This document shows, one piece after another, positions 40,214-42,367 of a stretch of DNA of 64,000 bases. How positions within the stretch are numbered: position 1 is the first letter of the stretch; the number at the start of each line of letters is the position of its first letter. The stretch spans positions 88,388 to 152,387 of the forward strand of contig DAIMDW010000007.1 of the NCBI GenBank assembly GCA_036725605.1, read 5' to 3'. The notes beneath the pieces were generated by a model that was not told where the DNA came from, did no database searches, and saw only the letters and a list, made by a program, of their open reading frames with translations. The stretch is from a bacterium. GTDB lineage: Bacteria; Lernaellota; Lernaellaia; Lernaellales; Lernaellaceae. Made by a program: the position numbers and the translations under genes.

Positions 40214-42367
40214 TCAGCAACCGCAGCCGTCATCGTCATCGTCATCGTCGTCATCGTCATCGTCGTCGGTGAGGTCGTCGTCGTCGCCGGTGTCGTCGTC
40301 GCCGGTGTCGTCATCGTCGCCGGTGTCGTCGTCATCGGCGCCGGTGTCGTCGTCATCGTCGTCGCCGCCGCCGTCGGTGAAGGTGATCGCGCCGATGAAC
40401 GGTTTCACGTTGTGGCCCGTGACGGTCAGGGTCAAGGTCAGCCCTTCGCTGACCGGCTCGATCAGGTCGATGCTGATCTTGCCGTCGGCGCCGGTGTAGC
40501 CCGAGCCGTACAGCACGTCGTCTTTCGCCAGACCGATCATCAGGTATTCCTGACCCGGTACGGTGACGCTCACCGCGGAGGTCGAGGTCGGCAGTTCGCT
40601 TTCATAGACCGGCGCGATCGTCGCCGCCTGCGCGGTGTAAACGAACGATTCGGGGTCGCCGAACAGGTTGTACATTTCGTAGTACAGTTTGGTCCGGCCG
40701 CCGCCCGCGTAGTGTTCGTACAGCTTGAGCAGACCGAAGTCGGTGATGCCCGACACCCAGGGAATCGCCGGGCGCGTTTCGTCGTCGCCGCGGGTCAGGC
40801 CGTAGAACTCGCCTTTTTCCAGAATGTCATCCTCGTCCCAATAGGTCGACTCGGAAGCGCCCCAGAACGCCAGCGCGCCGTTGGGCACGCGCTGCCAGGT
40901 TTCGGCGAAGCATTCGGGCAGCGTGTAGGTGCCGGTGACGCAGGCGTGCGAGAAGACCAGCGGATAGGTCGTGTTGGTCAGGGCGCGCACCTGCGCCTGG
41001 CTGACCGGCGGACCGTCGGCCCAACTGGTGTTCGAGCCATGGCCCGAGTAAGCGTGAACGGTCGGGCCGGTGTTGATCGCATCCAGCGCCTGCTGCGTCG
41101 TGCCGCCGTGCATGTAGTAGACCTTGGTGCAGGTGAAGCCCAGCGGCTCGAGCAGGTTGGCGCACACCGCGTTGTGCGTACCTTCGGAAATGTTGAAGTT
41201 GTCGCGGCTGGCCATGAAGGTCGCGTGGGTCATCCAGGAGTTGTCCGCGACGTTCCACTCGTTTTTCTCATGGGTCAGCAACTTGCCGATGATCGTGTTG
41301 AGGTGATCCTCGTTGCGCACCGACAGACGGCCGACGCCCAGGTCGGGCATGTAGTCGGCGCCGCTGACCGCGCCGTAGTACAGGTCGGTGGCCGCGCCGG
41401 TCGTGCCGCTGCCGTGCGTGACCAGGTTGGTGTCGCCGATCAGCAGCACGTAGCTGGGCGGAATGGCCCAGTTGTTGTACGCGTCGGTGATGTAGTTGAT
41501 GATCGCCTGCGAGGTCGCGCCGGTCTCGTCGGTGCCCGCCGTGACCACGTTCCAGCCGCGCTGCGTTTTCCACTCGACCAGTTCCTGCACCGCCGCCATG
41601 TTGAACGCTTCGGGGCGGCTGATGATCAGGTAGGTCGAGGGCACGAAGTGCGGATAGATCTTCTCGCCGAAGGTGCCGGCGTTGAGCGCAATGTTGTTGA
41701 CCATCGCGTAGCTGCGCGGGTCGACGTAACGCTCTTCCATGGCCAGCGTTTCGGCCATGTCGCCGTCGACGAATTCGACGTCGATGTTCAGGTGGCGGGC
41801 CACCAGCAGCGTTTCCTCGGCCGGCACGTAGTTGACCGGGCGAAGCTGCAGCGTGACCAGGCGGTAGCCGCGCAGCATGCCGTCGCCGACCACCTGCGCC
41901 GCTTCAGCGAACATCGGACGATCCACGGTGTAGGCGGCCGCGTCGACGGTGAAGATCGCCGCTTCGCGCGCGCCGGGGATCTTGGGAACCGACGGCTGAA
42001 TCGGCATCACCCGCGCCGCGCCGGTGAACGTCGAAACCGGCAGTTGTTCGTATTCGCCGCTCACGGTCAGACGCACGTCGGCGCCCAACGGCACGCGCAC
42101 CATCCGGTTGATCACCGGCAGCGCCGGCTGACCGATTTCCCCGGAGACTCCCTCTTCGGGCAGGGCGATTTTAACGTAGCCCGGTTCGGGCTCGGTGAAT
42201 TCGAAGCCGGACAGATCGACCTGAATGGTCAGCCCGTTTTCGTCGGCCTGACCGACCGTCAACGCCACCGGATTGATCTCGGCCGTTTCGATGCCGAACC
42301 AAGCCGCGTGGGCGGAACATACGCCCAACAGCAGAATGGTCAGGGTGAGTAAAATTGTGCGACGCAT
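40214..42367 (-). CDS. Secreted gingipain-like cysteine peptidase (family C25), with a propeptide and catalytic domain and ending in a poly-Asp-GCGC tail.
   Basis: Signal peptide MRRTILLTLTILLLGVCSAHA. C25-like propeptide/catalytic region (…YLIISRPEAF…VLLIGDTNLV…YSGHGSNTSWADG…FSHACVTG…). C-terminus …DGGGDDDDDDTGADDDDTGDDDDTGDDDTGDDDDLTDDDDDDDDDDDDDGCGC*. GGAAGGAG RBS. Confidence 0.7.
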   Translation of the reverse strand: MRRTILLTLTILLLGVCSAHAAWFGIETAEINPVALTVGQADENGLTIQVDLSGFEFTEPEPGYVKIALPEEGVSGEIGQPALPVINRMVRVPLGADVRLTVSGEYEQLPVSTFTGAARVMPIQPSVPKIPGAREAAIFTVDAAAYTVDRPMFAEAAQVVGDGMLRGYRLVTLQLRPVNYVPAEETLLVARHLNIDVEFVDGDMAETLAMEERYVDPRSYAMVNNIALNAGTFGEKIYPHFVPSTYLIISRPEAFNMAAVQELVEWKTQRGWNVVTAGTDETGATSQAIINYITDAYNNWAIPPSYVLLIGDTNLVTHGSGTTGAATDLYYGAVSGADYMPDLGVGRLSVRNEDHLNTIIGKLLTHEKNEWNVADNSWMTHATFMASRDNFNISEGTHNAVCANLLEPLGFTCTKVYYMHGGTTQQALDAINTGPTVHAYSGHGSNTSWADGPPVSQAQVRALTNTTYPLVFSHACVTGTYTLPECFAETWQRVPNGALAFWGASESTYWDEDDILEKGEFYGLTRGDDETRPAIPWVSGITDFGLLKLYEHYAGGGRTKLYYEMYNLFGDPESFVYTAQAATIAPVYESELPTSTSAVSVTVPGQEYLMIGLAKDDVLYGSGYTGADGKISIDLIEPVSEGLTLTLTVTGHNVKPFIGAITFTDGGGDDDDDDTGADDDDTGDDDDTGDDDTGDDDDLTDDDDDDDDDDDDDGCGC

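Follow-up and report, generated by a model that had tools for sequence, protein, structure and literature searches.

The stretch analysed here, called the window below, comprises 64,000 nucleotides of contig DAIMDW010000007.1 (positions 88,388 to 152,387) from a bacterium of the Lernaellota. It encodes a C25 (gingipain-like) peptidase whose acidic tail ends in a run of aspartates, Gly-Cys-Gly-Cys and a stop codon. An earlier note, made from the letters alone, had pointed out this poly-Asp-GCGC tail, and the open reading frame (ORF) of 717 residues bears it out. The features of the gene and its borders are as follows:

42450..42479, minus strand: sigma-70-like promoter match upstream of the C25 gene, TTGACT-18-TATAAT, 11/12 positions (consensus match only)
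40214..42367, minus strand: C25 (gingipain-like) peptidase gene, 717 aa plus TGA stop (ORF list; Pfam PF08126, PF01364, PF03785)
42305..42367, minus strand: Sec-type signal peptide MRRTILLTLTILLLGVCSAHA, predicted cleavage between AHA and A (then AW), read from the sequence
41762..42259, minus strand: Propeptide_C25 (Pfam PF08126, E=4.4e-9, 36.2 bits, above cutoff; matches the Kgp propeptide chain 5mun_A)
40649..41632, minus strand: Peptidase_C25 catalytic domain (Pfam PF01364, E=2.4e-55, 188.8 bits against a cutoff of 23)
41039..41041, minus strand: catalytic His443, YSGHGS aligned with the RgpB His motif (1cvr_A)
40940..40942, minus strand: catalytic Cys476, SHACVTG aligned with the RgpB Cys motif (1cvr_A)
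40385..40597, minus strand: C25 C-terminal Ig-like domain, the last folded domain ahead of the tail (Pfam PF03785, E=1.5e-7, 31.6 bits, above cutoff)
40229..40375, minus strand: acidic low-complexity linker of 49 aa, D3-6-T-G repeats and then D13 (sequence reading)
40214..40228, minus strand: terminal Gly-Cys-Gly-Cys (40217..40228) and TGA stop (40214..40216) (sequence reading, pattern scan)
40169..40192, minus strand: intrinsic terminator 22 nt past the C25 stop, 9-bp stem with 7 GC pairs, then the T-run TTTTTTAT

The peptidase and its acidic tail

The protein is ordered as signal peptide, propeptide, catalytic domain with the His and Cys residues, Ig-like domain and acidic tail. As read from the sequence, the signal peptide has a basic n-region, a hydrophobic core and an A-x-A site, and Val at position -1 before the Cys means that the N-terminus has no canonical lipobox. 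The protein matches gingipain R (RgpB, 1cvr_A) with E=7e-35, and the S1 Asp163 of RgpB pairs with a Glu. It would be an ordinary gingipain-like endopeptidase by its predicted activity, one cargo of the tail among others. A role as a PorU-like sortase for tailed proteins was rejected, for NF033707 scores 42.1 bits against a cutoff of 420 and the propeptide architecture is gingipain-like. The exact product is found on three metagenome contigs, the longest of which (JGI 3300010350 Ga0116244_10000029) has 245 kb.

The tail, DGGGDDDDDDTGADDDDTGDDDDTGDDDTGDDDDLTDDDDDDDDDDDDDGCGC, covers residues 665-717 (nt 40217..40375), is 66% Asp and ends with D13-GCGC-stop. Its length is 53 residues and not about 60, as the note had estimated, and the range 40214-40420 given there for the tail does hold it, together with the last 15 or so residues of the Ig-like domain. 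With the terminator only 22 nt past the stop, the gene does end with this tail. The antisense poly-Ser "ORFs" at 40179..40499 (plus strand) and 19773..19900 (plus strand) are poly-Asp coding runs read backwards, not genes.

The same tail occurs on a second protein in the window:

30820..32010, plus strand: glycoside hydrolase family 18 (GH18) glycosidase with signal peptide and the same tail; GCGC at 31996..32007, TAG at 32008..32010

This protein ends with DDDFFDDDDDDDGCGC-TAG, and its last 11 residues are the same as those of the C25 peptidase, so the two termini are identical as had been claimed. Its ortholog with 90% identity in the metagenome-assembled genome (MAG) DAINPV01 (L085, P0094) also ends with DDDDDGCGC.

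Distribution, coding and cargo of the tail

The pattern D5-GCGC-stop has two matches in the window and none in 100 shuffles. We then scanned one genome per species (596 Gb) for D4-GCGC-stop and found at least 83 loci, against about 0.3 expected with equal base frequencies by our own arithmetic. From these loci (L004-L086), which were chosen by the D4-GCGC pattern itself, 91 ORFs ending with D4+-GCGC-stop were extracted. Among the matches listed, eight MAGs account for 81 of the 83 loci, with the following counts taken by hand from the locus lists, again among the matches listed:

DAIPLW01 (CTOTU29523): at least 33 tagged ORFs
DAINPV01 (CTOTU18531): at least 27 tagged ORFs
CAZPJD01: at least 12 tagged ORFs
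JAOSJX01 ("FR-FEN-1099-1"): at least 6 tagged ORFs
CAYSHR01: at least 4 tagged ORFs
CAXXWT01: at least 3 tagged ORFs
CAZQAE01: at least 2 tagged ORFs
JACKCT01 ("HK-STAS-FEN-2"): at least 1 tagged ORF

Outside these MAGs, two matches were found among those listed. The one in the Kofleriaceae MAG JAESTW01 (L084, ending ...FEDDDDGCGC) could be a genuine truncated MYXO-CTERM signal in Myxococcota, while the 131-aa ORF of the Bacteroidales MAG JAKSML01 (L071) looks like a chance match. For the GH18 and C25 proteins, the top homologs with a name come from Ca. Lernaella stagnicola (54% identical) and Ca. Alcyoniella australis (35% identical); these two represent the described Ca. Lernaellota (= FEN-1099) (PMC9324843). 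In one gene at L036 535..636 (DAINPV010000036.1), the first end, D7-GCGC-stop, is followed in frame by a second one, D6-GCGC-stop, 24 codons further on; this duplicated tail end hints that tails spread or are repaired through local duplication or recombination.

For tagged ORFs with 100 aa or more, the median length of the acidic region is 47 aa (range 18-124), and this region is often periodic as DDDx, where x is mostly T, A, I or N. The terminal D-run touching the motif has a median of 8 residues (range 4-17, with the minimum set by the search pattern). GCGC is invariant in the alignment of 76 tagged proteins (A1), whose loci were selected by the pattern. At the DNA level the coding varies: all four Gly codons occur at either Gly position and the two Cys codons at either Cys position, and the stop codons of the 91 ORFs are TGA (65), TAA (16) and TAG (10). 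Even between the GH18 gene of the window and its 90%-identical ortholog, the last Cys codon differs (TGT vs TGC). Such free synonymous variation indicates selection on the peptide, not on the DNA, and rules out a repeat artefact at the DNA level. Furthermore, poly-D C-termini encoded in the loci outside the pattern selection have a Cys in the last five residues in all cases (GCCGC, GGCCGC, SGGCGC, NDDGCGC and others). Read-through or frameshift into a hidden segment with a transmembrane (TM) helix and Arg cluster was also rejected: three downstream frames for each of the 91 ORFs gave one weak candidate, and a terminator follows the C25 stop.

To survey the cargo, 76 tagged proteins of at least 200 aa were compared with Pfam. 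The most abundant families are Peptidase_S8 subtilases (11) and PKD (11), followed by metallophosphoesterases, BNR/sortilin and FG-GAP (5 each), M14 and Kelch (3 each), C25, M28 and DUF2961 (2 each) and others. Judged by these domains, the cargo would be the usual repertoire of secreted and surface proteins. A strict signal-peptide heuristic is passed by 52 of the 58 complete tagged ORFs and by 79 of 236 untagged ORFs (Fisher p=2e-15); it replaced a lenient version, which had passed 54 of the 58 but also 54% of the controls. The tag is thus predicted to sit on Sec-exported proteins. A type I secretion (RTX) signal was rejected, because Sec signal peptides are present and the repeats are D3-6-x, not GGxGxD nonapeptides. 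Some small tagged proteins (L008, L038, L068) are acidic at both ends, with DDDT/DDDA repeats right past the signal-peptidase site, e.g. ...VLAQ/DDDTAGDDDTASMDD.

The earlier note had viewed the tail as a localisation or modification module appended to different cargo enzymes. This view gains support from its presence on at least 91 ORFs of unrelated extracytoplasmic families and from the enrichment of signal peptides, and the tail is very probably a functional module of secreted proteins.

Homologs and known sorting signals

Among the GH18 homologs, 58 of 120 end with a Cys, a hydrophobic stretch and a basic cluster, for example P0128 (...GTGCGCGAGPAGRGGLLALLSLLGLSWRRRR). On TIGR03901, the two that were scanned (P0128 and P0122) reach 17-19 bits and narrowly miss the cutoff of 20. 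The closest GH18 relatives (40-54% identity) have poly-D, an SGGCG-like motif and a short stub: the homolog of Ca. Lernaella stagnicola ends with ...DDDDDDSGGCGQVVF (polyD-SGGCGQVVF), and others with SGGCGGVVF, TGGGCGGNAFF, SGGICGGAEVYAVFVK, SGPICGGSALAGSLLRSLGK or DDDGCCGG. These stub-type tails match no NCBIfam model. The C25 orthologs (39-58% identity), a comparison which the note had proposed as a check, likewise carry Cys-ended tails (GCGM, SGGCA, SGGGCS, SGGCGG, SGGCS, SGGGCG, GGGCGGW or SGCGC), the Alcyoniella protein ending with EDDDDDDSSCGG, and a D_n-GCGC family does exist in the genomes. More distant C25 homologs have a Cys, a TM helix and RRRR (P0025, P0027, P0034, P0080), T9SS (type IX secretion system) C-terminal domains (PF18962) or dockerins. 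These recognised sorting modules in the same slot, together with the retention of GCGC as a peptide despite codon turnover, further support the module view.

The relatives' tails have in common an acidic spacer, small residues and a single Cys, which lies in the last 1-6 residues in most of them and up to about 15 residues from the end in the longest stubs. Two proteins ending with SGGGCG and SGGCGGVVF come from contigs of equal length (192,101 bp), which are probably one and the same, and the residues past the Cys seem to vary even within one organism. GCGC-stop appears to be the form fixed in the sub-lineage of the window. In the sister MAG DAINPV01, a glycosidase (L036 753..1922, minus strand) between two D_n-GCGC genes bears a full tripartite Cys tag, GGSGGCGG-ELTGAPDADLLVMMLPAMMGLALL-RRKK, which no NCBIfam sorting-domain model matches. 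Such tripartite tags are about 10 times rarer than bare-Cys tails among genes of the loci outside the pattern selection (1 vs about 10).

To our knowledge, the described prokaryotic C-terminal sorting signals of the MYXO-CTERM class are all tripartite, with a motif, a TM helix and a basic cluster. In MYXO-CTERM itself, a disordered region precedes an invariant Cys, "frequently GCGC", which is followed by the TM helix and an Arg cluster; the model holds that the Cys is lipidated by an unidentified enzyme, with cleavage predicted, once the lipid is on, distal to the last Cys and surface delivery dependent on type II secretion (T2SS) (10.1101/2023.06.07.544157; PMC11980579). The tails of the window end exactly at the predicted mature end of MYXO-CTERM proteins. 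They resemble the MYXO-CTERM/myxosortase system (MrtX/MrtC/MrtP; TIGR03901, NF040914; Myxococcota, Bradymonadales) in the Cys signature (often GCGC), the disordered acidic region ahead of it, the placement at the very C-terminal end of hydrolases and adhesins exported by Sec, and the dozens of unrelated clients per genome (at least 33 and at least 27 in two MAGs). A myxosortase-family protease is encoded on the window contig, and GH18 and C25 homologs have MYXO-CTERM-like ends in that slot. Unlike MYXO-CTERM, D_n-GCGC has no TM helix and no Arg cluster, the stop comes directly after GCGC, the poly-Asp spacer is extreme, hidden Markov models do not detect it, the protease is below the MrtX/MrtC/MrtP cutoffs, and the lineage is Lernaellota/FEN-1099, not Myxococcota.

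No Pfam model (whole proteins) or NCBIfam model (whole proteins and isolated tails) covers the tail, and no description of it was found in the literature on poly-aspartate/Cys C-terminal signals and GCGC ends. The description of the Lernaellota has no such tail and never uses the term "C-terminal" (PMC9324843). In the family libraries and papers searched, the D_n-GCGC tail is therefore an undescribed, TM-less form of Cys-containing C-terminal sorting signals. We favour, with a probability of roughly 0.55, a lineage-specific C-terminal sorting or anchoring tag of Sec-exported proteins, a TM-less, CAAX/CXC-like derivative of the MYXO-CTERM class of Cys signals. On our best reading of the sequences, this derivative would have kept the disordered spacer and GCGC and lost the TM helix and Arg cluster.

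The eukaryotic CAAX and Rab CXC/CC prenylation motifs are processed by Rce1, and the Cys of K-Ras is flanked by a polybasic stretch. The tail would resemble these motifs in that its Cys is among the last four residues, any stub past it is short or missing, and the window encodes an Rce1-family (PF02517/NF040914) protein. A charged stretch stands beside the Cys in both, but it is polyacidic here and polybasic in K-Ras; unlike CAAX/CXC, the clients cross a membrane before any such step, and no prenyltransferase turned up within the window.

The graded shortening of the hydrophobic stub in the relatives can also be seen as decay. On that account, loss of the TM helix and Arg cluster turned anchored MYXO-CTERM proteins into freely secreted ones, with the acidic linker and GCGC as a leftover or a solubility tail. 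TraA without its MYXO-CTERM is indeed released to the medium via T2SS (PMC11980579), and the cargo consists of degradative exoenzymes that could act unbound. A leftover, however, would not stay invariant, and at least 90 unrelated proteins of several MAGs have kept GCGC-stop while its codons turned over synonymously. In the relatives the Cys persists while everything past it varies, and a stop at the same place in unrelated families needs repeated selection or transfer of a module, so we regard release as rather improbable.

According to the note, the tail stands in place of a T9SS C-terminal domain. The likeness of the slot holds: as in the gingipains RgpB and Kgp, a propeptide, a C25 catalytic domain with His and Cys and an Ig-like domain precede a C-terminal sorting slot. 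The framing by Bacteroidota and T9SS is an analogy only, for the organism is not a member of Bacteroidota and the proper comparator is MYXO-CTERM/myxosortase. The domain check that the note had called for agrees with its claim that this domain is absent, as PF18962 and TIGR04183 gave no match at E<=0.01 (Pfam) or E<=1 (NCBIfam). The tail might still be a recognition signal for an outer-membrane translocon, a counterpart of the T9SS domain that is read and possibly removed with no lasting attachment, given that it occupies the same slot as in Bacteroidota-type C25 and GH18 homologs (PF18962 in P0056, P0060, P0175 and others) and has the same cargo spectrum. But the T9SS domains are folded beta-sandwiches of about 80 residues (about 70-100 aa), whereas the tail is a low-complexity stretch of 53 residues; the sole match to T9SS machinery in the 64-kb window and its flanks is a tetratricopeptide repeat (TPR) match to PorW (37 bits, cutoff 250), and the only related machinery found is a myxosortase homolog. 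Such a signal is quite improbable.

Poly-Asp also occurs elsewhere in proteins of the window:

19082..19963, minus strand: lipoprotein with the mirror-image layout MKYKWLLIMLALALTLSLALAC/G-D8-N-D-A-D7-TG-DDD-TT-D9... (after the Cys: GDDDDDDDDNDADDDDDDDTGDDDTTDDDDDDDDD), by reading of the N-terminus
23342..24946, minus strand: PD40/TolB-like propeller protein, with poly-D after an atypical N-terminal ...LLLVDC and seven C-terminal DDDx (DDDT) repeats, ending with TVD-stop and no Cys

Of 30 lipobox-like N-termini in the loci, 11 show D4+ no more than 25 aa past the Cys (e.g. VASC/GGDDDD, LAGAC/GDDDDD and LVSC/DDDDDDDD), and none of those 11 proteins has the C-terminal tag. Cys-flanking poly-Asp is therefore found at the N- or C-end of exported proteins in the same organisms, and at the N-end this Cys is the one that bears the lipid. 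This symmetry is circumstantial, yet it is the best internal hint that the Cys serves as attachment point and poly-Asp as spacer or export determinant. In surface lipoproteins of Bacteroidota, the lipoprotein export signal (C-SDDDD, C-x-K-(D/E)2) directs surface export through acidic residues by the lipidated Cys (PMC5080379). The likeness lies in the acidic run beside the Cys, as Cys-G-D8... in lipoproteins of the window and loci and mirrored as D8-G-Cys in the C-terminal tag. The difference is that experiments tie the short, N-terminal export signal to a lipidated Cys, while the runs here are much longer and C-terminal lipidation is hypothesised.

The tail could, on the other hand, bind cations, metals or minerals or be redox-active. 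Cys-x-Cys is a metal-binding, redox-active motif and would chelate a metal or form disulfides; poly-Asp would bind Ca2+/Mg2+, mineral or extracellular polymeric substances. Either would, with no enzymatic modification, glue exoenzymes to the matrix, the S-layer or each other. The content of 66% Asp, the terminal runs of up to 17 D and the absence of a dedicated enzyme gene beside the tagged genes (83 loci) are in line with this. The named habitats of relatives in Ca. Lernaellota are anoxic (PMC9324843), so exported thiols could stay reduced. Against it, orthologs keep a single Cys (SGGCS, SGGCA, SGGGCG, SSCGG), which is poor for chelation, and this Cys is fixed in the last 1-6 residues after small residues, as is typical of processing or attachment sites. 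Genuine sorting signals that share the GCGC also occupy this C-terminal slot in homologs, and the propeller protein 23342..24946 shows that poly-D linkers can exist as plain linkers apart from the Cys motif, so Asp alone does not define the tag. We consider a binding or redox tail unlikely.

A candidate protease and the proposed route

The favoured sorting or anchoring tag calls attention to a protease gene of the window and its neighbours:

8614..9276, plus strand: CPBP/Rce1-like intramembrane protease of the myxosortase family, 220 aa (NCBIfam NF040914 Mrt_core, 126.3 bits against a cutoff of 100)
90..2726: GT4 glycosyltransferase and radical SAM/SPASM fusion
2723..3349: NodU-like carbamoyltransferase C-part (split gene)
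3342..6029: Carbam_trans_N, radical SAM and SPASM fusion
6033..7136, minus strand: third radical SAM/SPASM protein (in two relatives, 4 nt of overlap with the start of Mrt)
7402..8532, minus strand: TPR membrane protein (TPR and TM)

The protease matches Pfam PF02517 (E=3e-21) with the motifs PEELFFRGY, FALAHL and VHTLANL, and stays below the equivalog cutoffs for MrtP (192.8 of 250 bits), MrtC (143 of 195) and MrtX (128.6 of 180). A relative with 94% identity is named "myxosortase family intramembrane protease" by NCBI, and MrtX of Stigmatella is 43% identical. The lineage thus has a myxosortase of an unassigned subtype, outside the MrtX/MrtC/MrtP cutoffs, and the protein is a candidate for the cognate enzyme of the Cys-tag system. 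No genome with a myxosortase yet without the signal was found in the preprint of Haft (10.1101/2023.06.07.544157).

The same gene set adjoins Mrt homologs of 45-47% identity in L088-L090, where flanking housekeeping genes are syntenic too, and no NCBIfam equivalog was found for any gene of the radical SAM/SPASM set. The set is absent beside the Stigmatella MrtX (L091) and another deltaproteobacterial CPBP gene, which leaves it only a weak candidate for the missing Cys-modifying machinery.

If the tail is such a sorting tag, a tagged protein would first cross the inner membrane by Sec, where signal peptidase I would remove the signal peptide seen in the sequence. Next, the conserved Cys, which lies at the free C-terminus or close to it, would be covalently modified on its thiol, most likely with a lipid, as is proposed for MYXO-CTERM and as in CAAX/CXC. 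The Rce1-like protease (8614..9276) may trim the short stub past the Cys (CGGVVF etc., possibly -GC here), though a bare Cys end would need no cleavage. Finally, the enzyme would be tethered at the cell surface with the poly-Asp run as an extended charged spacer; poly-Asp might in addition act as an export determinant, by analogy with the acidic signal of Bacteroidota surface lipoproteins.

Several points weigh against this proposal. The main difficulty is that no obvious path leads a soluble C-terminus to membrane enzymes, for in the known class the TM helix keeps the substrate at the inner membrane and probably docks into the protease. GCGC-stop also leaves the protease little or nothing to cut, and the few tripartite substrates alone may explain its presence. 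Modification of the Cys and attachment of the proteins to the cell are both putative. TIGR03901 (cutoff 20 bits) gave no match to whole proteins or isolated tails even at E<=10, and in a clustering of ORFs with high G+C at third codon positions from the 83 loci no untagged family recurs beside tagged genes, none being in more than three loci. Besides, the invariance of D4-GCGC in loci selected by that pattern is partly circular, and the co-occurrence of tag and enzyme was seen on the contig of the window.

A bolder version, which we consider doubtful, is that the poly-Asp/Cys end is a self-sufficient extracytoplasmic counterpart of CAAX/CXC, in which an acidic run and a handful of terminal residues suffice for covalent Cys modification and surface tethering, with no membrane-spanning signal and largely with no proteolysis; the Mrt-adjacent set (90..7136) would then supply the Cys-modifying activity.

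A lineage whose signal stops at the Cys offers a natural experiment on whether modification and delivery to the surface require the TM helix. D_n-GCGC is a minimal tag that can be fused to reporters, and a very short anchoring or display tag may be of biotechnological use. It would also explain why automated annotation names a myxosortase but no clients in these MAGs, most candidate clients being invisible to the existing model. If the anchoring tag is real, the surface proteome predicted for Lernaellota, a group inferred to degrade polymers in anoxic lakes, would gain dozens of exoenzymes per genome.

Besides, the overlapping contig L087 encodes BamA, LolC/E-like and Lnt proteins, which indicate a diderm with a lipoprotein pathway; Lnt and a DUF8201 gene correspond to about 61200-64000 of the window, and the BamA and LolC/E-like genes lie past its end. 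A protein of 191 aa (50819..51391, plus strand) ends with a TM helix and RRKD but no Cys (...DVPLGAALLAPLFLAIALRRKD). It has a sub-threshold match to NF058595, "lipo-invert putative C-terminal anchoring domain" (16 bits, cutoff 37), and its end may represent a different type of C-terminal anchor. GT-C-type membrane proteins (PMT_2, TMEM260_N-like, PTPS_related) are unusually concentrated in the window (38406..40142, 45502..47862, 53725..55677, 55674..57407 and 57404..58939), one of their genes being directly downstream of the C25 gene, and they might glycosylate Thr/Ser in the DDDT/DDDS linkers.

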